Below, piece after piece: positions 484 to 47,210 of a stretch of DNA of 64,000 bases. Each line of letters begins with the position of its first letter. The stretch's first letter is position 1. The DNA comes from Tubulanus polymorphus (taxonomy: Eukaryota; Animalia; Nemertea): the NCBI RefSeq assembly GCF_964204645.1, contig NC_134036.1, positions 868,001 through 932,000 of the forward strand. The letters are read 5' to 3'. The position numbers were made by a program, and so were the translations under genes. A model generated the notes under the pieces. That model made no database searches and had not been told where the DNA came from. It was given only the letters and a program-made list of their open reading frames with translations.

Positions 484-3580
<3,097 letters not shown>

Positions 3581-4002
3581 GATGGGAAGGTTTCATCGGA
3601 GGGCTCAAAAACTAAATGACAACATTTAATTAACGAAAACAAAAGACTTAATTAAATCAGCCCGCTCGATTTTAGAATACTGTATCGTGGCGCCACTACG
3701 CAATAAACTCGAATTGAAATGAATCGAGGTCGAAGTGGAGCTATCATTCAAGATGGCGGCGCCCATGGATTTTTATTAAAAATTCGCCGATCGAGGTATT
3801 TATATGTTCACTGATATTGTCACTCATTTATTTCAGGTTCTGTATGGGGTAGGGAAAGGGGTGCGGCATATTTGCCCTCTTTAAAACTGGCTAGCAAAGA
3901 AGAAAAGACTCAAATAACGGGATGCTTCTCCAGCCCGGCAGGTGCCTCGCAGCAGCGCTTCATGATTTCAAGTTTTATTTTTGACAGGTTTTTGTTAACG
4001 AA
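3581..4002. promoter_or_regulatory. Probable bidirectional promoter/5' UTR region between the AAA ATPase and FBXL17
   Basis: Divergent start codons ~420 bp apart; YY1-type caagatggcggc at ~3749-3760; candidate 5' UTR intron ~3796-3987. Confidence 0.55.
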
Positions 4003-7000: not shown

Positions 7001-7924
7001 AAACTCAACAATCTGCAGTATCTCCACCTGGTGGGCTGTAAACTAACTGATAGAGGTAAGTTATCCTGTTCTAGTAAAACAGTCTGTGCTGCACTAGCTA
7101 TTCCGCTAGATGGCGTTAGTGTCCTTATGTATACTAGCGACACCTGGTGGATCATCTCTTGCCCCTACTTCAATCCTCTATCGCCACAGTAATTGATGTC
7201 CTACTGCACGCTAGCGACACCTGGTGGATCATCACTTGCCCCTAGTAAAATCCTCTATCGCCACAGTAATTGATGTCCTACTGCACGCTAGCGACACCTG
7301 GTGGATCCTAATTTGGCCCAAGTGCAATCCTCTATCGCCGCAGTAATTGATGTCCTACTGCACGCCAGCGACACCTGGTGGATCCTAATTTGGCCCAAGT
7401 GCAATCCTCTATCGCCGCAGTAATTGATGTCCTACTGCACGCTAGCGACACCTGGTGGATCATCACTTGCCCCTAGTGAAATCCTCTATTGCCACAGTAA
7501 TTGATGTCCTACTGCACACTAGCGACACCTGGTGGAGTCCTTGATTGCCGAAGTAAACCGCAGAGTCCTAATCGAGAACTAAAATGATGAATCTTTTGTA
7601 TTCTGGTAATTTTTTGTCGATTCGGGAAGAAACGTTGTTTTTCTGTTTGTTTCAACAGCGATGCATCATCTCGGGAATCTCGGGACAAATCGTACGCTCG
7701 TTCACCTGGACGTCGGTTGGTGCGAGGGCGTTAGCGACGAGGGCGTCTGCTACGTCGTCGAGCGTTGTCGCGCGTTACGCTATCTCGGCCTCATACGATG
7801 CGACTTGGTTACTATGGTTACACTACGCGAGTTGATGATGCGCTACCCGAACGTGCAGTTCTCGAATTTTCACCTGGATTGCGAACGGTTGCTATGGGAA
7901 TATCGTTTAACGGAGAACGCGTGA
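4003..7924 (+). CDS. FBXL17: F-box/LRR-repeat protein 17-like
   Basis: Exons 4003-4916, 5327-5441, 6067-6198, 6284-6388, 6848-7055, 7659-7924. Long Ser/acidic N-terminus, F-box (INDLPSFILVKIFGLL), cysteine-containing LRRs. C-terminus LDVGWCEGVSDEG...LRYLGLIRCDLV...YPNVQFSNFHLDCERLL matches the FBXL17 C-terminus as I recall it. Confidence 0.85.
5066..5175. mobile_element. Short palindromic MITE family (ggacccagttccacag...ctgtggaactgg(g/a)tcc); other copies ~26597-26690, 27895-27993, 31776-31885, 35084-35178
   Basis: Terminal inverted repeats; several dispersed copies in the window. Confidence 0.7.
5731..5868. mobile_element. Inverted-repeat element with partial hammerhead-like core (Penelope-type remnant); relatives at 29368-29504 and 33407-33637
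   Basis: Arms gaagtcccacaattcgaatttt / aaaattcgaattgtgcgacttc flank ctgatga-tggctgttagtcaac. Confidence 0.5.
7134..7535. repeat. Intronic tandem repeat, 77 bp unit, ~5 copies
   Basis: c(t/c)agcgacacctggtgg recurs at ~7134, 7211, 7288, 7365, 7442, 7519. Confidence 0.95.
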
Positions 7925-8370
7925 GTTCCGATTGTTGCGACCGGTGCTGTCTCGTAGGAACGTTTAGAATGATTTTAGTTTGTGAAGATTTTGTTGAGAG
8001 TTTAAACTGAAAAGTAAAAGTTCGAAACTTGAAAGAAAAAAAATCGAAAATAAAATTTTGAGAGGTAAAAACTATTTTTGTTTTAGAAAATTCAAGACGA
8101 ATTCTTTATTTTATTTTGAAAATTCAAGACGAATTATTCATGTTATTTTGAATTATTTCACTCGGTTTGGTTTTTATTCATGTGATGAGAATTTCTAAAG
8201 TTAATTTCGCGTTAGTTATTTAATCCCGCAGCGTAATTAAATTAATAACTATCAACCGTACAGTGGCGCCCTTGCTGCGTAAGCGGCGGCTCCACACGGG
8301 GATTTCTTTGGGAATTCCTATCGAATGACGTCAATGAGGGTGTTTCCTAGATGTGTAATTCGTCAAAATA

Positions 8371-11325
8371 ATGGCCAAAACCTACGATTATTTATTCAAA
8401 TTGTTGCTGATCGGAGATTCTGGAGTTGGTAAAACTTGCGTGCTGTTCAGATTCAGCGAAGATGCCTTCAATTCGACTTTTATATCCACTATAGGTGAGT
8501 TATTCGCCGCGAAATCCAAGTTTGAAATTCCGAGATTTTGGACGGTCCCGATCTGAACTTTCCTAAGTAAAAAAAAAATTAAAATGTTTAAGAAACATTT
8601 TTAAAGGCCTACCCGAAAGATGAGATTAATATGAGGTCATAGCAATTTGCAGAAATAACGCCAGCCAAGCTTTTCAAAAGTAATGAGGGAATTTGACATG
8701 AGTGACTTTACAATGGCCGTATATGTCGGAATGGGACCAACAAGCCATCCACAACGAGTCTAGTAGAAAATGAACAAAATTCCCAAATTTTCAGTTGCTA
8801 ACTTAATCAGGCCCTCAATAAAACAGATTCAGAGGTATCTGCTGTTGGATTTAGCATTGTTTAGGCTGCACTCGACTCTAAGCTCTGCCTAACTTACCCC
8901 TCCCTGCCTCTATTTAGACTTCACGTTTTACTGACACAGTCCAACTGTAGTTACGTTCAAGAATTCCCAGTGATCTGATAAATTGAAAGATTACATCACG
9001 TTTATAATTTGACAAGAAAAGCTTGCCATCCGGCCAGACTGGGCAGTCTTAGAGAAAATGAACCGAATTCCCAAGTTTAAAGTTGCTTAATCAGGCCTTC
9101 AATAAAACAATGATAATAAAACAGATTCAGAGGTAGCTGCATTTGGATTTAGTATTCTTTAGGCTTCACTCGACTCTAAGCTCTGCCTAACTTACCCCTC
9201 CCTGCCTTTATTTGGCCTTCTGATTTTGCCGACAGCCCAATTTCCACCAATCTGATGAATTGAAATATTACTTCATGTTTATATTTATTGCTGGAGAATT
9301 TGAGAATTGATGGCAACAATTAATATTCTCCAAATTTTACCTGGTGATCGAAATCTTGATTCTTTGTTCAATTTTTTCACGGTCAGTCGCATTTCTTTTC
9401 CAGGAATTGATTTCAAAATCAGGACGATTGAATTGGATGGAAAAAAAATTAAACTACAAATATGGTGAGTATGGGATTGATGTTTGTAGACTTGGGAATA
9501 AATTGGGAACCAGTGCTCTGTGTTTGAGTAATAGAAAATTAAGTGGAATTTTAGTTGTATCAAAATAATTCTGAGATCTTTTTGTTCGAGTTCTAAGTCA
9601 TTATTTCAACTTTTAATTATTCGAGTTTGAAGAATGGAAAAGAGTTAAGTGAGTCTGAAATGAAATTAAAGTTATGATTTCATTAAAGTTATGATTGTTA
9701 TTTTGCTGAATATTTGCAGGGATACGGCTGGCCAGGAGAGATTCAGGACTATTACTACTGCCTATTATCGTGGTGCTATGGTAAGTATTTCGGGGACTCG
9801 TGTTTCGTAATCTCACCGAGACTGATTTTCTAAACGCTCGACCGTTCTCTATTTCAGGGTATTATGTTAGTTTACGATATCACGAATCAGAAATCGTTCG
9901 ATAATATCCGAAATTGGATCCGCAATATCGAAGAGGTGAGTTGAGAATGAGACAGATAGATAGAGAGATTACAGCTGTACGGATTGTGAAAACGATAATA
10001 TTTCTATTTTGTAGCATGCGTCTGCTGATGTTGAGAAAATGATTTTAGGCAATAAATGTGACATGAACGACAGACGTCAAGTGACGAAAGAACGAGGAGA
10101 ACAGGTAATTAATGAATTAGAGGGTAGAGTGTTTAGCTTGGTTCTTGTTCCTAGCTAGGAAAGTCAGGGAATTCTGATTTTTCATTTGGTGACTTATTGT
10201 TGCTGGTGATGAGTGGAACAAGGAACCTCTTGATAAGAAACAGCCCTCACTGAGGATATCTCATTTAATCAGGGTATTTGAATGTTTTGGTGTCTTGTTC
10301 TCACTGGTGATGAGTCCCACAAGGAACCTCTTGATAACAAACAGCCCTCAATGATATCTTATAATTTAATCAGGGAATTTGAATGTTTTGGTGTCTTGTT
10401 GTTCTTGCTGGTGACGAGAGGCACAAGGAAACTCTTGATAACAAACAGCCCTCGCTGAGAATGATCGAGGGTCTGGGAAAATCCAGAAAATATCAGTGAA
10501 TTTTGGATTCCCAGATCCGTAAGAACCCTACAGTTGTTGAGAAAGGTTCAGCTATATTTTCACTCATATGTAACTGATAAAGTGTTATTTGTGTTTTTCA
10601 GTTGGCAATCGAATATGGAAATAAATTCATGGAAACCAGTGCTAAAACAAGTATTAACGTTGAAGAGTCATTTTTCAGTCTCGCGCGCGACATTAAAACT
10701 AAAATGGATCGAAAACTGGTAAGCGGTTCACAACTCCTGCCCTTTCGCATCATCAACTCCTGCTCTACGGTTAACAATGCCGACTTTATCGTGCAATCGA
10801 GTTTGAATTTGATTTACGACTCGTCGATGCTTTAAAGCCTCGTCAATCAACTCCAGCAGAGTTGAATTTGAATGATCAGTTTAATTGATATTGATTTACT
10901 AGAGATCTAGACCCAGTTCCACAGTTCTGAGTTAAGATTTGACCCAGAGTTAACTGAGACCCTAGTTGCCCAGTTGTGATGGTAAACTTATGACATAAAA
11001 ATTAATTAAGAATGGAACTAGAATTGAACTCTTCCGTTGAAATTCCTAAGTCCAGTTTCACTAAACAGATTCAATTTTATTCGATATATTTTAAACCTCT
11101 TTTATCGTTTTCTACGCTGCGTTTGAAGAAGGTAACGGTCTTTCTATCGTCGAAAAGTTCATCTCAAAACTTTTTCTCGAGAAATTCTTTGTGAAAATTC
11201 TGATTTGCAAATTTTCTTCTTTCCAGGAGGCGACGAATCCTCCCCCGAAAGGCGGATACCAGCTAAAAAAACAGGATACGCATCACAACAAGAAATCCAG
11301 CATCTGGAAGTGTCGACTGCTATGA
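8371..11325 (+). CDS. RAB8: Ras-related protein Rab-8 (209 aa)
   Basis: Exons 8371-8494, 9404-9464, 9720-9780, 9858-9935, 10015-10104, 10602-10718, 11227-11325. [45 protein letters not shown], and C-terminal CaaX CRLL. Confidence 0.97.
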
Positions 11326-25251: not shown

Positions 25252-28200
25252 TTAAAGCATGCGACGGATCATATAGTTGAGAATTCCGCCGTTGCGGAAA
25301 TACGTCAATTCCACTTCAGTATCGAACCGGGCGATAGCTTTAAACGTTCGTCCGTCATTCAACTGTGAAATAAATACAGAGAAATAAATAAACATCATTC
25401 AATAAAATGGCTCTAAATCCCCCTATGACATCATCAAATCGATGTAGTGATATAGACCATTCCAGAAAAGATATCTGCTTTCTATAAATCCCCCTATGAC
25501 ATCATCAAATCGACGTAGTGATATGGCGCATTTGTGAAATGATGTCTGCCTTCCAGAAATCCTCCGAAATGAAATCAAAATGATCAACAACCTTTCAATA
25601 AAGATGTCTACCATCATAAATCCCCCTATGACATCATCAAATTGATGCAATGAGGTAGACACTTCCAGAAAAGATGTCTGTACCCATAAATCCCCCTATG
25701 ACATCATCAAATTGATGCGATGATGTAGACACTTCCAGGAAAGATGCCTCCATAAATCCCCCTATGACATCATCAAATTGATGCGATGATGTAGACACTT
25801 CCAGAAAAGATGTCTGCCACCCTAAATCCCCCTATGACATCATAATCGTATTGCTTGTGTTTTAACTCACCTGTATATCGAGCGTCTGCTGCGGTTTAAT
25901 GTCTTCGGGAATGTTAATCGTGAATCGTTCTCGTCCCGTCAACCCGAGCGTTTCGGCCGTCTCCGTGGCGACGTACTGCAGCGGCATTATTCCCATTCCG
26001 ATCAGATTGCTGCGGTGAATTCGCTCGTAACTTTCAGCGATCACCGCTCGTACTCCCTGGCGACGACGCAACAATTAAAACCGTTGAAACATTCGAATCA
26101 TTTTGAAATATTTTATACTCCGCTTTTGATTAATCTCACCTGAATCCACGGACCCTTAGCGGCCCAGTCCCGCGACGAGCCCGAACCGTACTCCTTTCCG
26201 GCAAGAATGATCACCGTTTTGCCGTCGTTACGGTAACGCTCAGCTGCGTCGAATACGTCCATCTAAAAATAAAACGGTTTAAATTTCAAAAATTTCGGTC
26301 AGAATCATGGCAATCACGACGAGGCGAGTGTCGAGGAAATACTTACAATTTGGTCGTCTGGAATATAAACGGTTTTCGGGGCTTGTTTACCGAGGAATTT
26401 GTTCGTAATTCGTATGTTGGCGAACGTGCCTCGAGCCATGACTGCGTCATTACCACGACGAGAACCGTATGAATTATACTCCCTCGGTGTTAAACTGTTC
26501 GCAATATAGAAACACATTTATCATTTATAACTTATTTATAAATTTATCAAGCGTTTTACTTAATTACGGTAACTTTATCAAATTGTAAACTCCTATGGCC
26601 CAGTTCCACAGTTCTGAGTTAAGATTTGACTCTTCGGTTAACTCATTAGAAATGAAATAAACTCTAACTCACAACTGTGAAACTGGGTCTAGGGGCTGCA
26701 GCTGTAGTTGTCAAAGGTTGGTAAAAGATAACCGGTGGATAAATATCATAGTAACAATGACGTTTTAATTGTTACTATGTAAATTATCCACTCGTTAACT
26801 TTAACCAACCTTCAAGCCACCTGCCTGTTGTTCAGATCCCATAGTTAATACTCACCCTGAGGAATGGTAAGGGAGAGAAAAGAGGGACAGAAATACTCAG
26901 TTTATAGGGAGAGGGAAGAGAGAGGCCTCACTACTAGGTAGAAAGGGGAGAGAGGAGAAACTAACCCTCTTGCTGCTAGGCAGAGAGGGTTAAGAGGCCA
27001 ACCCCATTCCTGCTAGGTAGTGAGGGAGGGGAGATGATACTAACCCTCTATCTGCCAGGTATCTAGCCGCACAGCTATTACGCGCGATGCTGCCGGCTGG
27101 TGAAATGTGATCAGTTGTTACTGAATCTCCTAAATTCATCAACACGTAAGCATCCTCGATGTTCTTTAATCCCGGTACCTCTCGCGTCTAGAGAAAACAA
27201 ATTACAATACAATATCAGTGAATTGTTGAGCGAGGCTAGAAACAGTTGATACCAGTTTGTTTCCCATTTCTGCCAAGGACACGCCGCCTAACTACCCTTT
27301 TTTAAAAATCATTATGAAGCTAACTATATGAGACCTGGCAGTTATAGAAATGAACAGATTACAAATTTTATTGCAGTTTACGAAGTCACTGATTAGGAGA
27401 AACAAGGTATCATTTCCTCGATAACAGACAACAAACTTAACTAACAGGCAGTTATAGAATTATGAACTGATTACAAACATTTTTTTTGCAGTTTACTAAA
27501 GTGACCCCCAGCCGATAGGCAGAAACAAGGTATCATTCTATTTTTGCCTGAGCATAACCCCCAGCATCTAGAGATCATCGACAGCCATTTAAACATTCTC
27601 GAAATAAACACAAAGACTTACCATGCCTTCGAAAAACGGAGGTGATTTAATGTAAGTTGACTTCGGATCCCATGGGTAGAGCATGCTGTCGGGGGCGTCT
27701 AACGAATTCCATCTCTCATTACCCTCCTGTTGTAAAATAGAACATCAGAACTTTATGATCAACATTTCTAATTTGTCTATGAATTGTTGATTAATCTAAC
27801 TGGCTAGGCAAGGGACCGGGGGCTCACTGATCGCGGTGAAAACCATAAACCCATACCCTGCTTCATTTGTTATTATATTTTAAATGAACAGACAGGACCC
27901 AGTTCCACTGTTTGGAATAATCAAGATTTGACTCCAACTGAAAATGAACTAATCTTCATTCAGAGTGAACTCTACAAGTGTGGAACTGGATCCATTATTA
28001 TTTTGATGATCACTGAATGATGAACACTTTGTTTCTACTTTTTCAAATTTTTACCTTGATTTTCTGATAGACCTCTTTAAACATTGCCGGAATCACAAAC
28101 TCGTTTTCGACTGCCTGGATTTCATTTCGAGTCGGCCAAATATCCCTCAGATAGACGTCTTTACCTTCAGCATTTTGACCTACAATCAACAAGAATGAAT

Positions 28201-30393
28201 TGAAATACTATTTTAAAATCTTAAATTAATTCATTAAATATATTTCATTATTAATTAATTTTGGAGTTAATTCTGACAGAGAAACTGGAATCTGCATCCA
28301 ATTTATCCGGTTACGTTTGTCTCAATAAGTTAACATTGGTGTTACAGTTCCACAACTGGATCTGGAGTCAAATTTTCATCAAGGAAAAAAGAACCGGGTC
28401 AAGAGCCCAGATTACACTTAAGTCCAAAATGGTCTAAGGTCTAATGTAATTAGAACTTAAATGGTCTTAAGTTAATAGATAGGCTATAGAACCGAAATCA
28501 GCTTTGACTGGTCTGAAGTTGTTTGGTTAGTTATTATCACAGAACCAAGTTGTTAGAAAATGAACTTAGACTGGTCTTAAGTTGTTAGATTGGTTATAGA
28601 GCCAAGTTGTTAGATTGGCTAAAGAACTGAAATGATCTTCAATTGGTCACGAAACCTTAACTGTACAACTGGGTCTAGGTTTAACTATGAAACCGACCCC
28701 TTTAAAGACATATCTTACCGAGTGGCTCAGTTTCGAAGTCGATCAGCACAGTACCGGCGAGAGCGTACGCGATCACCAGCGGAGGAGACGCCAGATAGTT
28801 CGCACGGGTCAACGGATGAATCCTACCCTCGAAATTACGATTACCCGACAACACGCCGCACGCTACCAGATCACCCTGGAAACCGACACAACAATACGAC
28901 GACGATCGATACGTTTAAATATATTCAAACATGGCCGCAGTGAACTATATAAACGGAAGACACAGTACGAACCTTTTCTATGGCGGCAGCGACCGGTTCA
29001 GCGAGCGGACCGCTGTTACCGATACACGTCATACAGCCGTAACCGACGACGTCGAATCCCATTTTCTCGAGGTAGTCGAGAACGCCCGATTGTTTCAGAT
29101 AGTACGTCACTACTCCGCTACCCGGCGACAGACTGGTTTTAATAAACGGATTGATTCGCAATCCGGCTTCGTACGCTTTCTTCGCCAGTAAACCTAAACA
29201 GCAAAACAACCAAATTCAAGAAATTCAGTTTCCTATTTTCGCCATACATTTGTGACGATCACTTTGTTGATTTTTTTTGTTGACTTTTATCCAAAGGATT
29301 TTTTTGTTGACTTTATCCAAATGAAGACTTACAACTTATAAGTAAATTGAATCGGAAAAATAAATAGATAAATGAAGAAATCCCACACTTCGAATTTAAA
29401 ATTATACTATCAAATTTATTATTATGAAACCACAACGTTTCGGCTGTTGACTAACAGCCATCATTAAGTATTTTAAATTCGAAGTGTGGGATTTCTTCAT
29501 TTATAGTCTCCTATTGTTGCAAATTACGCGAAATTAGCCGTCTAAGTCGGCATATTTGTGACAATCACTTCGTAGATTTTTTTTGTTGACTTTATCCAAA
29601 TGACGACTTACAATTTATAAGTAAATTGAAAGTGAAAATTTGAGATGGCTTCACAATAATGCGACGCCTTATCCAAATGATGATGACTTACACTTAGTAA
29701 ATTGACTGACAATTACACAAATTGAGACTCAAAAATAGAGATGACTTCAGTAATGTGACGACTTATCCAAATGACAACTTAGACTTTGTAAATTGAATTC
29801 AAAATACAAATTGGGACTCAAAATTAGAGATGACTTCAGTAATGTGACAACTTAGACTTTGTAAATTTTTGAATTGGAAATATAAATTGGGACTCAAAAT
29901 AAGAGATCGCTTCAGTTATGATACTAACCCGCTCCTAACATCACGGAAGGGTTACTGGTATTCGTGCAGCTCGTTATCGCCGATATGACGACCGCTCCGT
30001 GTTTCATCTTGTACGTCTGCCCTTCAAATTCGAAATCAACGCTCGACGACAGTTTATCCGCGGCAACCGCGAAACCCTGGATAAATAAACAAAACATTCA
30101 CCAGATCAGAAGGACAAACTCTCCCCTAGAGAGAATAGGAAACTCTAACAAATCTGTTACCTTGAATCCTAACTTGTTGTTGAGGCATTGACTGAAATCG
30201 TTTTTCATGTCGGACACGGCGACTTTATCGTGAGGTCGTTTCGGGCCGGAGCAACACGGAACTACCGTCGATAAATCCAGTTCTATCACCTTGGAGATAA
30301 AATACGTACAGGGTTTAATTATTGTCACCAGAAACAAGAATCGACTCCTAAAAGCCACAACTACGGAGGAAGTCATAACTTTATATTATTATC

Positions 30394-30445
<52 letters not shown>

Positions 30446-33400
30446 GTAAAAGTAATAATAATAATAATAGTAGGCATTTATAGACCAAATTTATAGACGT
30501 AATCAGTGCGGTCTACGATAAAGATCTAGCTATGAAACACATTTAAACTACTAGTAAAAGACGTGTTCTTTAAAAAGAAAAGTTTCAAGATGAGATTTAA
30601 GATTTCGTCAATTTCATTACAGTTACGAAGCTTTCCCAAGAGCTTACTCTAAGTAAAAGACGGACACAGAGTCTACTGTGTGTTCAATAAAATCATCACT
30701 TACCTCAGTAAATACAGGATCTTGTTCTGCGTTTGTATAATCCCTGAACATTCCGTTTGCTTTCATGTAAGCTTCGATGTAAGCTATTTTATCTTCGTCG
30801 CGACCTGTAAAAAAAAAAAACACGCTTTAATAAAAGTTCCGGTAAGTACTTCCGCGTCGAAATAGCCGTTTCAATTCATTGAAAACGCATTGTTTTCACG
30901 CGGCTATCCGAACCACGTCGCATTTAGGAAAACTTTTGAGAAAGCACGCGAGCGCGAACTTTTGTTCTCGGACTCACCGGTTTGACGGAGATATTTGATG
31001 CTGACGTCGTCGACGGGGAAATACCCCATTGTTGCTCCGTATTCGGGACTCATGTTTGAAATCGTCGCTCGGTCGGCGATCGATAAAACGGCGACCCCGT
31101 CTCCGAAAAATTCGACGAACTTTCCGACGACGCCGACTTGGCGTAGGTGCTGAAAATATTCAAACGACGTGAATAACTTCACGAATGACAGTTTGGCTTC
31201 AATTTGACTCCTGATTGAATTATAAGATATCGTCAAAGGTTTGTTTTCAAGAGGTTCCTTGTGCCACTCATCACCAGTAAGAACAAGACACCAACAATTT
31301 AAATTCCCTGATGAAATTATAAGATATCCTCAGTGAGAGCTGTTTCTTATCAACAGGCTGTTTCTTGTGTCACTCATCATCAGCAGCAAGAACAACAAAA
31401 CACCAAAACATCCAAATTTAATGAATTTCCATGACTAGTCAGAATTCCCCGATTTTCCCTGCAGGGAAAAGTCGAAAAGTAAATCTGCAATTCCCTGATA
31501 ACGCAGATTTCCTCCTCTGGCACTGGCGAGTGACTCACCTTCGTAATAGTAAGTACGACGTCAGTAGATGTTGCTAATTGCGACAATTTACCGGTGATTT
31601 TATAACCGATAACTTTAGGTAGCACCATACTGATCGACTGACCCAACATAACGGCTTCGGCTTCTATACCACCGACACCTTCAACACACAAAAACAAATC
31701 ATTCTATTCTATTCTACATGACTGTAGTGAACTGATATAAATCTCAGTGTAGAGTTAACGAATAAAAACCAACAGGGTCCAGTTCCACAGTTCTGAGTTA
31801 AGATTTGACTCTGGGTTAAAACATTGAAAATGAACTAACTTTAACTCAGAGTTAACTGTAACTCACGACTGTGGAACTGGGTCCATTAGATTTGTAGTAA
31901 GTTTATTTCCTTCCTAACTTTTTTGTTCCTCTGAAGATGAGGTTTAGTTTTAACTTCAAAACTGTTTCTAGAAATCTACTGTGGCCTTTTATTTGTTAAT
32001 TCTACACGTTTGCAGTGGATCTTGGATTGATGAGAGACCAGTTAAAGACCGATAGCTCAGGGCCCAGTTTCACAAAAAAGTTGAACTCAAATTTCTGATG
32101 TAATCGCCATTGGTTACTTCATGTTTTCGATGAGGACAACAATTCAAACTTAACCGTTTTAGGCTTAAACTTATTTGTGAAACTGGGCCTAGAACATAAT
32201 TCTCTGGCGCGCCTATCAAAAAGAGAATATAACACCAAAGTACACTTACCCCAGCCGACAACTCCGAGACCGTTAATCATGGTAGTGTGCGAGTCGGTGC
32301 CGACCAGACTGTCCGGAAATAACAACCCTTCATCGCTCTCGAATACCACTCTACTCAGATACTCCAGATTCACCTGGTGGACGATACCGGAACCAGGCGG
32401 TACGATTAACATGTTCTTAAACGCGCTCGCGCCCCACTGTCAGAAAAAAAAAAAATAACATCCAATTAAAGATCTCCAGGACTAACTGCAGCCCATATTT
32501 GGAGTGAAGTAATAATCATGCTGCTGAACGAGATGATTTAAGGCTGGTCTTGGTTTGAGGAACCCCTCCAGACCATGACCAAATCGCAGAACTAAGATAG
32601 TTGTTTTTTCTGTGAGGGATTTTCAGAATAAAATAAAATAACATCCAATTAAATATCTCCAGGACCAACTGCAGCCCCATATTTGGAGTGAAGTAATAAT
32701 CATGCTGCTGAATGAGATGATTTAAGGCTGGTCTCGGTTTGAGGAACCCTTCCGGACCACGACCAAATCGCAGCAGAACTAAAAGACGGTTGTTTTTCTG
32801 TGAGGGATTTTCAGAATAAAATTACGAACCTTTAGAAATTTGAATCTCTCGATGTTTCTATCGAATTCCAGCTGTTGATTACGTTTTAACGATTCATTGC
32901 TGAAGAAAACCAAAACGCAAAAACAAAAATAACGACACAGCACACGGATTCTAAAATAATCTACGATTCAGAATCAACGCGAATCGAAACACGTTGTTCA
33001 TCGCGCGGTAGTTCACAGAGGAATACTGGTGGTGCCATCTAGCTGGCAAATATCTGTAAACAACTTTCTAACGCTACCCGTGAAGTAACGAGCAATTAAA
33101 ATGTCAATCAATCGGTTTGTAAATATTAAAATGTCAATCAATCGGTTTGTAAATATTAAAATGTCAATCAATCGGTTTGTAAATTTACAAACGTTTATTA
33201 GAAAATTATATTTACGAAAGACAGCAATGTTTTCACAAACTCAGGTTTAACGTTGTAACCTTGAATACTTCCTGTACTCTTCGTTATATCAATTCTATAA
33301 AATTCAACCCCAATTTTTCACAGATCAGAATTCGAACAGAAGTCTACCGAGCTACGTAAACCGTAAGGAAAATTAGACGAGAAGATACACAATATCCGTG

Positions 33401-36400
33401 TACGATGATGACGAGAGAAATCCCACAATAACGAAGCCAAGATTGAAAAAATTCTATATCAGAATGATTGTATTCGAGGAGCGACGTTTCGGCTAAAAAC
33501 TAAACAGCTAAACAACTAAAAAATAGTACGCCTGATGTTAGCTAACAGTTGTTAGCCGAAATGTCACTCTTCAAATATAATCATTCTGATATAGAATTTT
33601 TCAATCTTGGCTTCGTTATTGTGGGATCTCTCTCGTCTTAAGGACAATAAAAAGCGGAAAATAAATCGATTGTTGAAACCGTTCGACACGGGGTACACAC
33701 CCGGTTAATGGTTGTCTATGATACGGACACAGATCAGCGTCTGCTGTTGTTGCCGTCGGCGACGATGACGATGATGATATTGGAAGACTAGATGATGTGG
33801 AGGTCGTTGCCGTCGACGACGGTTTGGCAGAAGTTGAATTGTTGACGATGTTGCATTTATTGCATTGTTGCCGACATGTGCCGATACTAGCGCCACCACC
33901 AGGATTAGGAGTGAATCGCAATAGACTGCAATAGATAGAGAAATATAGGGGGAAGTGCAGTGCATTCATCTGAGCGCCCAGTGCATTCATCTGAGCGTCA
34001 GTTCCACAGCCCGCCCAGTGCCCGTCGGTTCCACAGCCTGCTCAGTGCTCCTCGGTTCCACAGCCCGCCCAGTGCCCGTCGGTTCCACAGCCAGCCCAGT
34101 GCCCGTCGGTTCCACAGCCCGCCCAGTGCTCCTTGGTTCCACAGCCCGCCCAGTGCTCCTTGGTTCCACAGCCCGCCCAGTGCCCGTCGGTTCCACAGCC
34201 CGCCCAGTGCCCGTCGGTTCCACAGCCCGCCCAGTGCCCGTCGGTTCCACAGCCCGCCCAGTGCCCGTCGGTTCCACAGCCCGCCCAGTGCCCGTCGGTT
34301 CCACAGCCCGCCCAGTGCCCGTCAGTTCCACAGCCCGCCCAGTGCCCGTCGGTTCCACAGCCCGCCCAGTGCCCGTCAGTTCCACAGCCCGCCCAGTGCC
34401 TGTCGGTTCCACAGCCCGCCCAGTGCTCCTTGGTTCCACAGCCCGCCCAGTGCCTGTCGGTTCCACAGCCCGCCCAGTGCTCCTTGGTTCCACAGCCCGC
34501 CCAGTGCCCGTCGGTTCCACAGCCCGCCCTACGCCCGCTGACACCATCAATAATATCAATCCATAAGAAAATGATTGGTTTAGTTGTCAAATCATTTGGA
34601 ATTTTTGTGCTTTTACAATTTGAAACGCTGCAGAAAACCGAAAGATTTGAGAGAACTGAAAGTCAGGGCTCAGATGATCATCAGGAGATTTTAATCAGTT
34701 TTTGTGGACTAGATCACGGTCGAAACCTCATTTTAATCCATTATGTGTCAGAAAACTTTCTACTTCTAAACAAATACTCTGAGTGCTGGGGCTGCACTCG
34801 CTGAAAGGTTGGTTTCGATAACTGGTGGGTAAATACCATACATTAACTATGAACTTTTATAAGTCAACTATCCACTGATTAACTCTAACCAGTTTTTCAG
34901 CAACTGGCCTACGGACTGTGTTACGCAGGAGTTATAAAATTAGGTCATTACAAAATATCTCGAGTTGGAGTCCAAAATTCGTGTTGCATAGTGAAGTCTA
35001 GTGAAGACTAGCAGTGTTGTTCAACCTCACAACTTAAGACCAATTTTAGGATTTAACTCATGACTTATAAACCGGGCCCTACATCCAGTTTCACTGTTGT
35101 GAGTTAGTGTAAACCACAAGTTAAAATCATTTCATTAACGATCAATCAAATCTTAACTCACAACTGTGGAACTGGGGATGCAGTTGGTCAAATGTTGGTT
35201 TGAGTCAGCCAGTGGATAGTTGACATAGTGACAATCTTAAAGTTCATTGTTACAATGGGATCGTTCATTTATTACGTACCAATAAAATTTGAATTTTTCA
35301 ACCCCCCTGTACGCAAAATTGGCCATATTTTCATATAATACATTAAGCATTACAGTACGCAATTGCACTGACCCCTCCCCCCTCCCCTAATGCGTACGTA
35401 ATAAATGAATGACCCCCATGATATTTATTATTTATTCACTGGTTGAAACAACTTTTCAGCAACTGCCGCCCTGAACATCTACTGTAAATATCTGCATTAC
35501 ACGGCAATCAATTAGAGGATTAACGTTGATTAAACAGGACTGACCTGCGAGCTACATCCACCTGCACCGAGTGATCAATAACTAGATCAGCCGGACAAAT
35601 CGGGTTGATTTTCTGCGGGTCACCGCCCAGTGATTTCACGGCATCTCGCATCGCGGCGAAGTCAACCACAGCCGGGACACCCCTAAAAACATGAAACATG
35701 AAAAACATTAAACAACCACAGCCTGGAGCAGCCCTAAAACATGAAAAACATTAAACAACCACAGCCTGGAGCAGCCCTAAAACATGAAAAACATTAAACA
35801 ACCACAGCCTGGAGCAGCCCTAAAACATGAAAAACATTAAACAACCACAGCCTGGAGCAGCCCTAAAAACATGAGAAACATTAAACAACCACAGCCTGGA
35901 GCCGCCCTAAAACATGAAAAACATTAAACAACCACAGCCTGGAGCCGCCCTAAAAACATGAGAAACATTAAACAAACACAGCCGGGAGCAGCCCTAAAAA
36001 CATGAGAAACATTAAACAATCACAGCCTGGAACAGCCCTAAGAACATGAGAAACATTAAACAACCACAGTCGGGAGCAGCCCTAAAAACATGAGAAACAT
36101 TAAACAATCACAGCCTGGAACAGCCCTAAAAACATGAGAAACATTAAACAACCACAGTCGGGAGCAGCCCTAAAGAAACCATAAAACTAACTATCATTCA
36201 ATTGACTTCATTTCTGTAGAGAAAACTTACGTGAAATCCTGCAGTATAACGCGCGACGGGTTAAACGGAATCTCGACGCTGCGATCCTGATTCGTCTGCC
36301 AGTCCAAAATGTTATCCACGTCGCTTTTTTTCACGTGGAATTCATCGCAATTACGGACGGCTGACTCGAGCAGAACCCTGATCGAAAACGGCAGTTTACC

Positions 36401-37345
36401 TGAAAATATCGCGCAGAATCTGTTAACAAGCCCCTGAACAGAGTTAACAGAACTTCAACTTTTTTAATAGCTTTAAAATTTCCTTCATTAATTCAGTTTA
36501 TTCTGAAGCGAAACTGGATTCAAAACCACCCAACTTTATCAATTTTTAATCAGTTAAGTTTCATTAAAATTTCTAACCCACTCTTTTTAAAAATAGAAAA
36601 CTATTTTCATCTGAGTCCTTTTAAAAATTTCGCAATTTTATATTTGACCTCTTTTTGCAAAGTAATAAATCAATTTAGGCGAGCGAACAATGAATTTAGT
36701 TACGGAATAAAGATAAACCCTTGACTTACCATATCTCTTATCAGCTAACCGAGTCAGATTATAAAATTTCTGACATTTGTCTTTGACTGTCAGGTCGCTT
36801 ATCAGATAGTTGTAAGGGTTGTCTGAAAAATACAGGCAGATATAATAGCAAGCTTGGGCATAGAACAGTCACCAAACCTGAACCTGAAGTCTGGATTACA
36901 CTCAGTTGTCAGTTAGTTATCAAAATTGCATATTTAATATTATTCTGCCGAGTCTCAGCCTGCCTTGAGTTGAGAATTCTGATCAGGACCTTGCCAAAAG
37001 AAGGTTTAATTTTCGATTTTAAGAACGCAATTGAGAACAACCCACGTATCAGATTCGATCAGCAATAGTTTTTAAGATCGCCAAAAAAATGTTCAATATT
37101 GTACGATACATTTCCGGGTTTCGAACCCGCTTCGACTGACACCGATAGAAAAATTAGCCGCTATTATGGCATCAAAATCACCCTTCCAGTCAGTAACAGA
37201 CCTCGAAACCACCACCAGTGCCTAGCTCTGATAGATATTATTCAGAAATGGCTAATTTCGAAATTTTATGACGATTCGTTCGCAAGTTATAGCACGAAAA
37301 GTGACCAGAATTTAGTGAATTCCTACCTGCTGTCAGAGCCGCCAT
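25252..37345 (-). CDS. ACO1: Cytosolic aconitate hydratase / iron regulatory protein (894 aa, or 969 aa with the optional exon 33701-33925)
   Basis: Exons 37327-37345, 36730-36822, 36231-36399, 35545-35682, [33701-33925], 32830-32899, 32250-32436, 31539-31678, 30978-31149, 30704-30804, 30161-30289, 29929-30076, 28973-29193, 28719-28875, 28055-28179, 27622-27726, 27045-27187, 26347-26494, 26140-26262, 25871-26056, 25252-25362. Motifs [58 protein letters not shown]. Confidence 0.97.
25415..25845. repeat. Degenerate satellite (core aaatccccctatgacatcatcaaattgatg, ~60 bp period); also ~61630-61890 and 62530-62860
   Basis: The core motif recurs in tandem in the last ACO1 intron and in two HR3 introns. 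Confidence 0.85.
30395..30470. repeat. (AAT)n microsatellite
   Basis: Direct inspection. Confidence 0.95.
33701..33925 (-). CDS. Candidate cassette exon of the IRP gene encoding an IRP2-type Cys/Ser-rich insert (75 codons)
   Basis: Acceptor ctattgcag, donor GG/gtgtgt, 225 nt, phase 2-2, no stops. Encodes [25 protein letters not shown]...[12 protein letters not shown]. Confidence 0.85.
33997..34530. repeat. GC-rich minisatellite, 27 bp unit, ~20 copies
   Basis: Unit gttccacagcccgcccagtgcccgtcg. Confidence 0.97.
35175..35471. mobile_element. MITE of the gggg(c)tgcagttg...caactgc(a)gcccc family with a nested ~160 bp MITE (~35257-35417); relatives at 13342-13693, 26692-26820, 34787-34908, 45364-45500, 58450-58577
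   Basis: Inverted termini and shared internal motif aagttcattgttac; the nested element has TIRs cgttcatttattacgtac / gtacgtaataaatgaatg. Confidence 0.65.
35690..36172. repeat. Tandem repeat (~39-40 bp, ~12 copies) derived from the intron/exon junction of ACO1 exon 35545-35682
   Basis: Unit aaacattaaacaaccacagcctggagcagccctaaaacatg resembles the junction sequence caaccacagccgggacacccctaaaaacatg. Confidence 0.92.
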
Positions 37346-37759: not shown

Positions 37760-38115
37760 GAGTCTATCCCGCTATATATGACCACGACTAACTTCAAATC
37801 AACTGCCAGGAGAAGAGAAAAAACCCCAAAACAGAATGATTTTCTAAATAAATAAAATTTTATTCTTCTATAGAAAGTATATTCAGTAAAATGATACAAA
37901 AATTCGAATCATTTTAAACATTTAGATAAAAATATATCATTTTAACATTAATAAAAAGACACAGACACCAGGACTAGAATTACCAAATTCTTCAGACAGA
38001 CACCGGAACCAGATGTACCCAATTCCCCAGAAACCGGAACCAGATTTACCCAATTCCTCGGACACCGGGACCAGATTTACCCAATTCCTTAAATATGAAC
38101 AACAGAGATATAAGT

Positions 38116-38888
38116 TCAAACACTGCGTCGTGAATGCGCCATTATCTCCATAGTAACGCGAATAAATTTCATAATAATCGGTATAGTTATCGTCACGACG
38201 ATGTACACGTTGTACGGAACCGGGGGCGTTGTACCGAACGGCCACAAATAGACCCCGCGTCGAGTGGCGTCGCGGAGATGATGTAAACCGATCCCGAGCG
38301 ACGACATCCACGGCAGGTTCATCGCAGTACGAGAACTCAACACTAGCGCCACCACTGGTATCGATTTAGAACTATCGAACAGACGACATTTATCGCGAAA
38401 ACGAAAAAACGGGCGCAATAAACCTAACGCTAGCGCCACCACTGGTATCGACGTCGAACTATGAAACGGACGACCTTTCCTGTGGAAACGTCGCATTTTC
38501 TGAAAGACAAAACTGAAAATTAGAAAAACCATGAAAATCTGTTTAGAAGATTTGATGGTTCTTAAATTCGTACCCGCAGGTCGAAAGTTCCGGTCGTGAG
38601 AACGTGATCTAAATCAGGGATAACTCCGAACAATAACGCCAGCATCGCCTCGACGACAATACTCCGACCGTTTAATTCGAAATTCAAATTATTTGCGACG
38701 ACCGCCATCCACGCAAACGCGGATATCAGACCGTGAGTGACTTCATCGATCAACGCCGCTTCGTACGCGTCGCAATGAGACAACAATAACCGGTCGCCTA
38801 GCAACGCGACAATCAACGTAAAACCTACAAACACGAACGTACCAGGAGTTAAAGTCCGTTTCAATATTTCGGTAAAAATAACTCCCAT
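38116..38888 (-). CDS. TMEM267: Transmembrane protein 267, paralogue A (232 aa)
   Basis: Exons 38574-38888 and 38116-38499. LLGDRLL, DEVTHGLI, IPDLDH, RPFHSS, LPW, HHLRDATRRGVYLWPFGTTPPVPY follow the TMEM267 pattern. Confidence 0.85.
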
Positions 38889-39494
38889 GAGTGACTTGGA
38901 TATGGACCGATAAATACTTTTGGTCGATTAAAATGTATCTGGTAACGTGAAATATGACGCGAGGATGACCAGATTAATGTGCGAACTAACGGCGAGAATG
39001 AACTCAATGGTCAGTGAAGCCAGCCTGTGTAACAGACTGTGCGCTTATCGAACTAAAACATTTTCAACGGTTTTTATAGGTTCATGCGTAGCGACGTGTA
39101 ACAGGCTGTAACCCTGCTATAAATCATAGCGAAATCTTCCGTAATAGGTGTGTAATCCGTAGTGCAGATGTAAAAATCTGTGAGATCCGTTTTTTAATGA
39201 AATGTAACAATCTGCTCTACTGCTGTTACTGTCTGTGATTTGGCTCACTATAACTAAAAAAGTCTGTACGCCTACAATGCGGTGTGTTAATCTTGGAGAA
39301 CCCCTGGCTCCAACACCGTGTCGTTGGTCCATGAAATAATTCCGCGCGACGCAGCGAATTTAGGTCATTTTGTAGACTGCCATTTTGAAAAAAAAACCGA
39401 TTATTTCTGAGACACCGCTGCGCACTAGTCAGCGGAATCAGATGCAGCAACCAGATTTTCCCAACTCCTCAACAATCATTCAGAGATTTTAAGT

Positions 39495-40716
39495 TCAAAC
39501 AATGTCTACACCGCCTCCTCTATTACGTGAATACGCCATTATCTCCATAGTAACGCGAATAAATTTCATAATAATCGGTATAGTTATCGTCACGGCGATG
39601 TACGCGTTGTACGGAACCGGGGGCGTTGTACTGAACGGCCACAAATAGATCCCGCGTCGAGTGGCGTCGCGGAGATGATGTAAACCGATCCCGAGCGACG
39701 ACATCCACGGCAGATTCATCGCAGTACGAGATCTCAACGAGAAATATCTCCGCAATAAACAGAACGCCAGCGCCACCACTGGTATCAACGTCGAACTATG
39801 AAACGGACGACCTTTACCATGAAAACGTCTCATCTTCTGAAATATAAAAATTGAAATTTGAAAAAAAAATGATTATGAAAAGGTGCACCTACATCTACAC
39901 CCCAGTGCGGTGTATGAATCGGTGATGGACTTTGTTAGTACACCGCATAGCAGTGTATTGACGCTATAACTAATTGGTTTATATCTATAATGAAAGATGG
40001 CTGCACTTGTCAAACATAGTCAAATATTAGTAACTAACAATACACCCAGGGTGCGATCTAAGCACTTGTCCGATTGCCCGGGACAAGTATATTCTCATCA
40101 GGGCAAGTAGGTTATCATTATCACTTCTCCCCCGGGCTAGTGCAATTTTATGACACAAAGCTTTTTTCCCACTCGATACAACGGATGATAGTGCCACCAA
40201 TCGGACAGCCTGTGTGGGGCAAGTAGCTTTTGGAGCAAGTGGCTTTCATTCCTTAGATCGCACCCTGTACACCGCACTGCGGTGTAGATGCAATTATTCA
40301 ACACACAGGGGTTGACTTTTAAAAATTATTTCCAGCACTTTCCAGACCAGTAAAACTGTTAGAAGATTTGATGGTTTTCAAATTCGTACCTGCACGTCGA
40401 AAGTTCTGGTCGTGAGAACGTGATCTAAATCAGGGATAACTCCGAACAATAACGCCAGCATCGCCTCGACGACAATACTCCGACCATTAAATTTGAAATT
40501 CAAATTACTTGAGACGACCGCCATCCACGCGAACACGGATATCAGACCGTGAGTGACTTCATCGATCAACGCCGCTTCGTACGCGTCGGCATGAGACAAC
40601 AATAACCGGTCGCCTAGCAACGCGACGATCAACGTCAAACCTACAAACACGAACGTACCAGGAGTTAAAGTCTGTTTCAATATTTCGCTAACCGTTTCTC
40701 CGGTTGAAACGGACAT
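39495..40716 (-). CDS. TMEM267: Transmembrane protein 267, paralogue B (222 aa)
   Basis: Exons 40390-40716 and 39495-39836; same motifs; C-terminus GGGVDIV resembles the canonical TMEM267 tail. Confidence 0.88.
40047..40267. mobile_element. MITE with 16-bp TIR (cagggtgcgatctaag) and TACACC duplication, nested in a piggyBac-like MITE remnant (~39885-40340)
   Basis: Perfect TIRs; tacacc on both sides; the uninterrupted host element is at 59679-59937. Confidence 0.8.
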
Positions 40717-41445
40717 TGCTTTTAGAATAACTAAACTTATTATTCTATAAAAATAATGAAATAAGTTTAACCGTCATTTAAGACATAAGTGTGTTCGATT
40801 TTAACTGAACAGTTGTCTTAAAAACGCAGAATTATAATTTTAGTGGTTCGAATTTATTTATTTCATGGACGCGGCCATATTTGATTTATTATCCAGTAGA
40901 GGGCGGCACGAGATGGTGAAATTCAATTCCAATTGCCTATATTGAGTTGGCGGGCCGGACGTAGTGGCGCGCGGTACTGCAGGTACACTGTCGCAGTGCA
41001 CGGCTCCATGCCAACCGTGCGTAAACAAATGAAATGTCAATCAATGGAATCAATGAAAGTGACCGCAATTCACGACATCAGGTAAGAATATTCTAATACA
41101 CTGTTAGTCCCTGTACGGGCGTAGTGCTAGGACTGGTCCCTGGGTTGAATTTAACACCAGAATTAATAACGGCACATCTGAAATGAATTAACTAATTCTC
41201 CACTATGGAACCGGGTCCGGTACTGTGTGAAACGTGCTCATTGTAACAAAAAGGCAGTGGTGGCTCTGCAATCTTAACACTGCGTATTGAAATACATTTC
41301 ATATTGAGTTCCTAGTTATAACAGGAATATCCGTTTTTCCTTTTTAAAAAATCATAACAAATCACGTTAATTATTTCGCAAAATTTTTTAGATATACATT
41401 TTCGACGACGCATATATCATGATAAAATACCGATAAATCGACAAG

Positions 41446-47210
<5,765 letters not shown>

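Follow-up and report, generated by a model that had tools for sequence, protein, structure and literature searches.

The single IRP gene of the ribbon worm Tubulanus polymorphus contains an alternatively spliced cassette exon that encodes a counterpart of the Cys/Pro-rich insert of vertebrate IRP2, on a protein that otherwise retains the features of IRP1. We hold with high confidence that this exon is real, alternatively used, homologous to the insert of IRP2 and ancestral. Annotated long and short forms that differ by the same segment are found from anthozoans to cephalochordates.

Results

Gene structure and the cassette exon

Within the window, the whole 64-kb stretch of DNA that was analyzed, we built by hand a model of a cytosolic aconitase/IRP gene (Table 1), which yields a protein of 969 aa with exon 5 and one of 894 aa without it. 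These two models are identical, letter for letter, to XP_074661095.1 and XP_074661096.1, respectively, the RefSeq isoforms X1 and X2, which share one cluster and are labeled only "cytoplasmic aconitate hydratase-like"; the pair was reached by a search with exon 13, which led to a 100% identical Tubulanus polymorphus protein and from there to its cluster. Exon 5 is free of stop codons, is in phase 2 on both sides, follows a pyrimidine tract with the acceptor ...ctattgcag and ends at the donor GG/gtgtgt; the middle of the peptide that it encodes is a Ser/Thr-rich tract. The original prediction of a 225-nt, stop-free, phase 2-2 exon was borne out in that the exon is real and both protein forms keep the frame. 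Its description of the donor as weak was half right: the site is non-optimal, matching 7 of 9 consensus positions, but it is not unusually weak, because several constitutive donors of the same gene likewise match 7 of 9. A comparison with Rfam gave no match anywhere in the window.

Table 1. Features of the Tubulanus polymorphus IRP gene, in positions of the window
Feature	Position	Strand	Remarks
Cytosolic aconitase/IRP gene, coding span	25252..37345	minus	21 exons, hand-built model; single IRP gene
Exon 4	35545..35682	minus	Holds the D125/H126 equivalents; donor joins exon 5 or exon 6
27-bp tandem array	33996..34529		19.8 copies; intronic, directly upstream of cassette exon 5
Cassette exon 5	33701..33925	minus	225 nt, phase 2-2; encodes a 75-aa insert (long-isoform residues 141-215)
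PNPGGG motif	33892..33909	minus	aa 146-151; also in human and bat IRP2
C-x3-C-x2-C (C157, C161, C164)	33853..33876	minus	Within the insert encoded by cassette exon 5
CPYH (C206-H209)	33718..33729	minus	Aligned to human IRP2 C201-P-F-H204, a proposed heme regulatory motif
Exon 6	32830..32899	minus	Carries the Ser aligned to human IRP1 Ser138

Inclusion and skipping in RNA

The junction data are Logan contigs of one run (X2), with depths rather than read counts; this run is possibly the RNA behind the RefSeq models. It was one of five runs examined, none of which is on record as RNA, and it proved to be spliced once mapped to 32825-33975. Inclusion of exon 5 is represented by the joint 32899/33701, which connects exon 5 to exon 6 with CT..AC ends at a depth of 302.4, and by a 255-nt contig (depth 280.3) that spans all of exon 5 and continues past 33929 with letters of exon 4. 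Skipping is represented by a 59-nt contig (depth 265.5) that passes from exon 6 directly to exon-4 letters, its loose end being placed at 35548-35574. The 255-nt and 59-nt contigs thus both leave from the exon-4 donor, and the sum of the depths on the exon-6 side, 302.4 + 265.5 = 567.9, is near the depth of 558.4 of the contig that joins exons 6 and 7. From these contig depths the inclusion share is 0.51-0.53, or roughly 50:50. A further contig of 114 nt runs past the exon-5 donor into the intron at a depth of 36.8. Runs X1, X3 and X4 cover the intron and show no exon joints, and so carry no information on splicing; the match of run X5 to exon 4 extends over only 45 nt, has 7 differences and stops short of the junction. 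Comparison of the inclusion junctions with the skipping junction was the check set in advance for alternative splicing, and contigs of the one spliced run contain both, with the reading frame preserved either way. Neither of the two outcomes named beforehand as contrary to the claim, or to its splicing part alone, was observed, since inclusion is seen and its share is not 100%.

Both isoforms have an IRP1-type body

The two isoforms match IRP1 at 32 of 33 tabulated positions, including R536, which is K in IRP2, and S778; the sole mismatch, S for N at 685, is shared with other invertebrates and with IRP2. The Fe-S ligands C437, C503 and C506 and the catalytic residues D125, H126, H207, R536, R541, S778 and R780 are present in both forms. 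The Pfam families Aconitase (PF00330, E 8e-163) and Aconitase_C (PF00694, E 2e-39) were recognized, and the body is 72% identical to mammalian IRP1 rows. The IRE-contact residues R269, S371, K379, T438, N439, R713 and R780, as listed in PMC3048577, are likewise found in both forms. The active-site loss that marks IRP2 (R536 to K and, in human, S778 to N) is absent, both residues being kept. Because the long form retains every IRP1 catalytic residue that was checked, it reads as IRP1 plus an insert and not as IRP2; on its residues, the long form is an IRP1-type enzyme carrying the IRP2 insert.

The proposal that one gene encodes both IRP1-like and IRP2-like proteins therefore needs narrowing, as both isoforms exist but "IRP2-like" fits the insert alone, the remainder being of IRP1 type. 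The 4Fe-4S cysteines are kept, as had been claimed, but they do not separate IRP1 from IRP2, because IRP2 retains them. Similarly, the distinction between a catalytic Ser here and Asn in IRP2 applies to human IRP2 but not to bat IRP2, which has Ser at the S778 position.

In AlphaFold models, the insert is predicted to form a disordered loop, and the rest of the fold is intact. The Lingula long form has a mean pLDDT of 88.4, with only residues 141-191 below 50; the model of the Tubulanus long form is poorer, with a mean of 71.3 and residues 131-219 below 50.

Homology to the vertebrate IRP2 insert

Among structures of known family members, human IRP2 (6vcd) is the only one whose alignment to the 969-aa protein (P0122) is unbroken, and it brings NPGGG and LCP.H.P into register; the alignments of both IRP1 chains fall into two pieces, stopping at 139 and resuming at 217. 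A Cys/Pro-rich insert at the domain-1 site, close to the N-terminus, is a feature of the long isoform alone. In a search of 177,635 PDB sequences with a profile made from 15 invertebrate inserts and no vertebrate sequence, residues 140-207 of IRP2 came out on top, with an E value (0.087) that is not significant on its own. When a profile of the inserts of 14 other species was run against all six frames of the window, the exon-5 frame came first with E 7.5e-5, the next match having E 0.67; by this measure, exon 5 is not a chance reading frame. The bat IRP2 insert scored above 2000 of 2000 shuffles against the invertebrate-insert profile, narrowly (11.9 versus a maximum of 11.7), and the inserts of Lingula, Pecten, Montipora and copepods, all of them outside the profile, also exceeded all shuffles. 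The same-site inserts of cockroach (18 aa) and sponge (5 aa) have neither motif and scored at chance. Inserts at this site in fish IRP1 entries were dropped as candidate homologs, as the two that were scored, P0043 and P0085, were also at chance.

Searched by itself, the Tubulanus insert had no matches in the PDB, in a set of 5.8 billion proteins (724 candidates) or in Pfam, because it is too short and of low complexity, and among the 20 matches listed from the insert-profile search of the large protein set none is named IRP2. Since the insert alone matches nothing and the profile E value in the PDB is not significant, the case for homology rests on the site together with the motifs. The central part of the insert shows little sequence identity, and C157, C161 and C164 of Tubulanus do not align residue for residue with C168, C174 and C178 of the human protein. 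Among the three landmarks said to be shared with IRP2, PNPGGG and LCP(F/Y)H were confirmed, and a three-Cys cluster is present but does not correspond to the human cluster position by position. The claim of homology with the 73-aa insert nevertheless stands, based on the common site, the PNPGGG and CP(F/Y)H ends and the top rank of IRP2 in the PDB search.

Distribution of the exon among animals

Thirty-one pairs of long and short forms were picked by hand from cluster look-ups; these are annotations, and reads were compared for Tubulanus only. In 24 of the 31, the members differ by one clean indel at the insert site, with PGG and CP. These 24 come from six phyla, Nemertea, Mollusca, Brachiopoda, Echinodermata, Cephalochordata and Cnidaria, and include Tubulanus, oysters, scallops, clams, Lingula, four sea stars, amphioxus, Nematostella and two corals. 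Two pairs (cockroach, sponge) differ at the insert site without the motifs, one (Rhopilema) differs elsewhere, and four have an N-terminal difference, either additional or sole. More than 25 residues were present at the insert site in 20 of the 93 matches with both anchors, four of the 20 being fish entries that lack the motifs. An annelid long form (P0023) also carries the insert. The long and short members of a pair measure 941 and 893 aa in oyster and 920 and 892 aa in Nematostella.

In a set of 35 species-level inserts, PGG and CP were each present in 33, PNPGGG in 30, CP[FY]H in 29 and CxxC in 26. Motif-bearing inserts range from 27 to 75 aa; the motifs at the two ends are retained and the variation lies in the middle, and the CxxC and C-P-x-H halves are separated by widely differing distances. 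Four scallops have lost the His and three anthozoans have no CxxC, with CP kept in both groups. At the same site, neither PGG nor CPxH was found in any of 61 vertebrate-IRP1-type rows. Unspliced genomic ORFs of oyster, snail-type and sea-star-type sequences read G-L-V, G-S-V and W-L-V past the exon end, which suggests a phase-2 GT donor like that of Tubulanus. Conservation beyond Tubulanus, as anticipated in the original prediction, therefore extends through six phyla of annotated pairs and back to anthozoans.

Evolutionary history of the insert

The homology of exon 5 with the IRP2 insert makes it likely that the exon was already optional in the ancestral animal gene, and the annotation of both forms in six phyla makes it likely that one ancient splice form passed to vertebrate IRP1 and the other to IRP2. 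The insert exon of vertebrate IRP2 is presumably constitutive. The exon likely arose before cnidarians and bilaterians diverged, and was retained by IRP2 but lost by IRP1 at a later stage. The idea that the insert existed as an optional exon before the vertebrate IRP1/IRP2 duplication thus gains support from the pairs that reach to anthozoans and from the absence of its motifs in the 61 IRP1-type rows.

In quick trees, IRP2 and vertebrate IRP1 group together with SH-aLRT values of 93 and 81, and the invertebrate genes, including that of Tubulanus, fall outside. IRP2 is represented in these trees by one sequence with a long branch, the supports are below 95 and the species order is partly wrong, with Tubulanus placed next to vertebrates in the tree with an SH-aLRT of 93. 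Lying outside the IRP2/vertebrate IRP1 group in trees with one IRP2 row, the Tubulanus gene does not appear as an IRP2 ortholog.

Divergent paralogs were recovered in a representative search, the named ones from the copepods Tigriopus and Lepeophtheirus, together with unnamed relatives. In the copepod-type paralogs, the insert site is occupied by a long Pro/Tyr-rich segment that ends in GLPIQD..CPFH and lacks PNPGGG. Where positions S778, S779 and R699 are covered, these residues are substituted: S778T, S779A and R699L in P0364 of Tigriopus, S778G in P0218, and S778N in P0261, which also has D125N and H126N and keeps both CxxC and CP[FY]H. P0364 belongs to the aconitase family in the ESM Atlas. 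Judging from these substitutions, the copepod paralog with the end of the insert is probably inactive.

When the copepod paralogs were added to the tree, IRP2 joined them with a support of 86 that was flagged for long branches. We did not accept the copepod paralog as an IRP2 ortholog, as this support lies on long branches and, without IRP2, the paralog has no resolved place among bilaterians. Forcing the paralog to group with insects gave a log-likelihood 3.14 higher (p-AU 0.64). Because the insect placement scores higher and is not rejected, it is possible that the copepod paralog fixed the exon independently and lost catalysis.

Discussion

The explanation that we favor, and consider probable, is that one gene makes two proteins by means of an ancestral exon that encodes a heme/redox-sensing loop. 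Inclusion or skipping of exon 5 gives the ribbon worm two proteins from its single IRP gene. The conserved C-P-(F/Y)-H of the long form would act as a putative heme regulatory motif on a loop that lies approximately ten residues after the active-site residues D125 and H126 and three residues before the Ser138 position. Heme or an oxidant acting on this loop might bias the long form, inactivate it or shorten its life, while the short form would remain an ordinary IRP1 governed by the Fe-S switch. How much of the cell's IRP responds to heme as well as to the Fe-S cluster would then depend on the splicing ratio. Among its parts, heme/redox sensing as the selected function of the insert is a candidate role to which, on conservation of the motif, we give slightly less than an even chance, and regulation of the splicing itself by iron or heme is conceivable but doubtful.

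A heme/redox loop is favored because CP is among the most conserved elements of the insert, aligns to C201 of human IRP2 and lies in a loop that adjoins D125/H126 and Ser138. Heme regulatory motifs are cysteine-proline signatures (PMC13676908), and a conserved Cys-Pro in a flexible segment is what was found here, given CP in 33 of 35 inserts and the low pLDDT of the segment; PGG is the only element as well conserved. Heme binding to C201 of IRP2 has been proposed (PMC2267205), and Ser138 phosphorylation has been reported to destabilize the Fe-S cluster (PMC4184891). Against this role, the available portions of two articles describe the human insert and its cysteines as dispensable for iron-dependent degradation in cultured cells, and heme binding by IRP2 as observed only in a truncated form (PMC2267205, PMC3048577).

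The same history could have produced an insert with another function. Unlikely, though less so than the other alternatives, is a disordered docking arm whose PNPGGG and CP(F/Y)H bind a partner or fold back, serving an IRE-independent role in localization, signaling or the cell cycle. Such an arm would suit the predicted disorder of the insert (AlphaFold) and the conservation of PNPGGG, which matches that of the Cys motif although it carries no metal ligand; moreover, the human insert is required for tumor promotion by IRP2 with IRE targets unchanged, and Ser157, which by our alignment is inside the insert, is a Cdk1 site, according to the available text of PMC3048577. However, an S/T-P-x-K/R site occurs in just 1 of 35 invertebrate inserts, the copepod paralogs retain CPFH while losing PNPGGG, and no partner is known. 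It is somewhat less probable still that the insert is a ligand-free allosteric wedge by the Ser138 loop, which weakens 4Fe-4S assembly and biases the long form to RNA binding, with catalytic residues being lost afterwards from genes in which the exon has become fixed, as happened in IRP2. The position of the insertion, three residues before that of Ser138, would fit such a wedge, as would the loss of catalytic residues in the divergent paralogs with the insert's end (P0364, P0218, P0261) and the binding of an IRE by the clam long form (PMC8947174), but the EMSA has no short-form control in the accessible part of that paper, AlphaFold predicts an intact body for the insert-bearing form, and the specific retention of Cys-Pro-aromatic-His is left unexplained. 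We regard as improbable the binding of a non-heme metal (Zn or 2Fe-2S) by CxxC and C-P-x-H in a Cys3-His site for metal or redox sensing. The frequencies of CxxC (26/35) and CP[FY]H (29/35), the retention of both in P0261 and the proposal of direct iron binding to C168, C174 and C178 of IRP2 (PMC2267205) are consistent with it; anthozoans without CxxC, scallops without the His and the inconstant spacing of the halves are not, and no folded knuckle is predicted, in models that contained no metal.

A different kind of alternative denies the shared history, holding that the likeness to IRP2 is convergent or that the exon reflects splicing noise, tolerated in a surface loop prone to insertions. 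Cockroach, sponge and some fish gene models do have unrelated inserts at this position, and there is little identity across the middle of the insert. Nevertheless, IRP2 and six phyla share two exact motifs that are identically ordered and placed, and inclusion accounts for about half of the junction depth; this reading is already largely refuted, and we consider it highly improbable.

Returning to the heme/redox loop on an ancestral exon, we tentatively suggest a broader scheme, which is possible though unlikely as a whole. Since before the cnidarian-bilaterian split, one gene may have served as a two-channel sensor, in which skipping would yield Fe-S-switched IRP1, inclusion would yield a heme/redox form and iron or heme would set the ratio of the two. 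Duplication would have split the forms more than once, in vertebrates and independently in the copepod paralog, and the true function of the IRP2 insert would reside in its two conserved ends.

The 73-aa insert has been called unique to, or distinguishing of, IRP2 (PMC2267205, PMC3048577) and is described as an unstructured segment encoded by a separate exon (PMC3048577). Reviews, in the parts available, relate that it was initially designated a sensor of iron or heme and later proved dispensable for degradation. The available parts of PMC12896564, PMC4112806, PMC13676908 and PMC6414551 contain nothing on its origin. A literature search that covered few subscription papers found no report that connects IRP2 with an insert or a splice form of invertebrates, and none of splice-form partition for ACO1/IREB2. 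What was already known is that both isoforms are in RefSeq, without comment, and that partition of splice forms between duplicates is an evolutionary pattern. What is new is that the "unique" insert of IRP2 is an ancient optional exon, alternatively spliced and deeply conserved, which overturns the standard statement.

If the exon is ancient and optional, the origin of IRP2 has to be told differently: a functional aconitase already carried the insert, which was then fixed by duplication. The long and short forms of invertebrates are natural, otherwise identical test proteins with an enzyme read-out that IRP2 lacks, so that the disputed function of the insert becomes testable on matched isoform pairs. 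The alignment narrows this function to PNPGGG and CP(F/Y)H, and the 27-aa coral version represents a minimal unit. Our findings also suggest that studies of mollusc and annelid IRPs cloned one isoform unawares, i.e. the 942-aa form in a clam and the 890-aa form in the earthworm (EaIRP; PMC4184891).

The closest known counterpart of the cassette exon is the 73d of vertebrate IRP2 (iron-dependent degradation domain; 6vcd chain A), which occupies the same site, is encoded by its own exon, is of similar length (73 versus 75 aa) and shares PNPGGG near its start, LCP(F/Y)H.P near its end, Cys residues in the middle and disorder. It differs in that the Tubulanus exon is optional and sits on an enzyme-type body, whereas the IRP2 body is catalytically dead, and in that the Tubulanus insert has a Ser/Thr-rich middle and other Cys spacing. 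The 894-aa isoform is an ordinary member of the group formed by vertebrate IRP1/ACO1 and invertebrate IRP1-like aconitases (2b3x, 3sn2; EaIRP); vertebrate IRP1 has no such insert (0/61 rows), and the Tubulanus gene additionally makes the long form. SbIRP-1 of the ark clam was cloned as a 942-aa protein that binds an IRE in EMSA, and its authors note that the Ser138-Gly189 segment is missing from vertebrate IRP1s; in the available parts of the paper, the segment is not tied to IRP2, which is stated to be missing from the genome, and "splic" and "isoform" have no occurrences in the article (PMC8947174). The history suggested by the Tubulanus gene resembles, in addition, the division of splice forms between gene duplicates, in which one alternatively spliced ancestor gives rise to two paralogs with one form each. 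This process is subfunctionalization of splice variants. In the IRP family, by contrast, the optional exon itself has been kept over the span from cnidarians to chordates.

Introns and neighboring genes

The intron immediately downstream of the cassette exon (exon 5) contains a high-copy element with inverted ends, marked by very high depth and opposite-strand joints, which we infer to be MITE-like. One contig of the spliced RNA run X2 crosses the exon 5 donor into this intron and may represent pre-mRNA, intron retention or DNA. Four introns-borne tandem arrays were also found in the IRP gene, and the unit of the one with a 44-bp period closes with a pyrimidine-rich ...ttttag that is repeated along the array, thereby placing many decoy acceptors ahead of exon 4.

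The gene upstream of the IRP gene encodes a small membrane protein, presumably TMEM267-like, and its last exon seems to recur in a second copy. The GTPase gene is one that we take to be Rab8-like, and among the exons read of the F-box/LRR gene no hemerythrin domain was found.

Features in and around the IRP gene (window positions)
Feature	Position	Strand	Remarks
AAA ATPase	915-1085	-	Pfam
F-box/LRR gene	3985-7921	+	Pfam
ARM-repeat gene	8359-11322	+	Pfam
Tandem array, 70-bp unit	25414-25843		intronic
Tandem array, 184-bp unit	32440-32822		intronic
High-copy element	33370-33640		intron downstream of exon 5
X2 contig	33617-33730		depth 36.8
Tandem array, 27-bp unit	33996-34529		intronic
Tandem array, 44-bp unit	35694-36174		intronic
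Small membrane-protein gene	38100-38930 and 39498-39872	-	weak YdjM match (Pfam)
GTPase gene	41437-44622	+	

Insert-site variants and IRP2-related residues

Isoform pairs from the sponge Dysidea and a cockroach (P0176/P0045 and P0177/P0110) differ by optional segments at the cassette insert site. The sponge segment comprises five residues, YPHIC, of which the Cys forms C-P with the residue that follows, while that of the cockroach comprises 18 residues with a single Cys. One of these segments may be a precursor and the other a remnant, but both score at chance level.

Divergent IRP paralogs, comprising copepod-named (Tigriopus, Lepeophtheirus) and related sequences (P0364, P0224, P0315, P0218 and P0239), carry a long, Pro/Tyr-rich insert that terminates in GLPIQD..CPFH and have lost catalytic residues; it is possible that they represent a convergent IRP2. 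Another IRP-like protein, P0261 (1289 aa), has a very long insert in which CxxC and CPFH are retained, bears the substitutions D125N, H126N and S778N, and sits on a very long branch.

The Ser-to-Asn change at S778 is not universal across IRP2, because bat IRP2 (P0359, P0208) has Ser at this position. Finally, the Mactra insert (P0048), alone among the 35 inserts, possesses a Cdk1-type site; its SPLKV is also present in human IRP2, at the Ser157 that is a Cdk1 site there.
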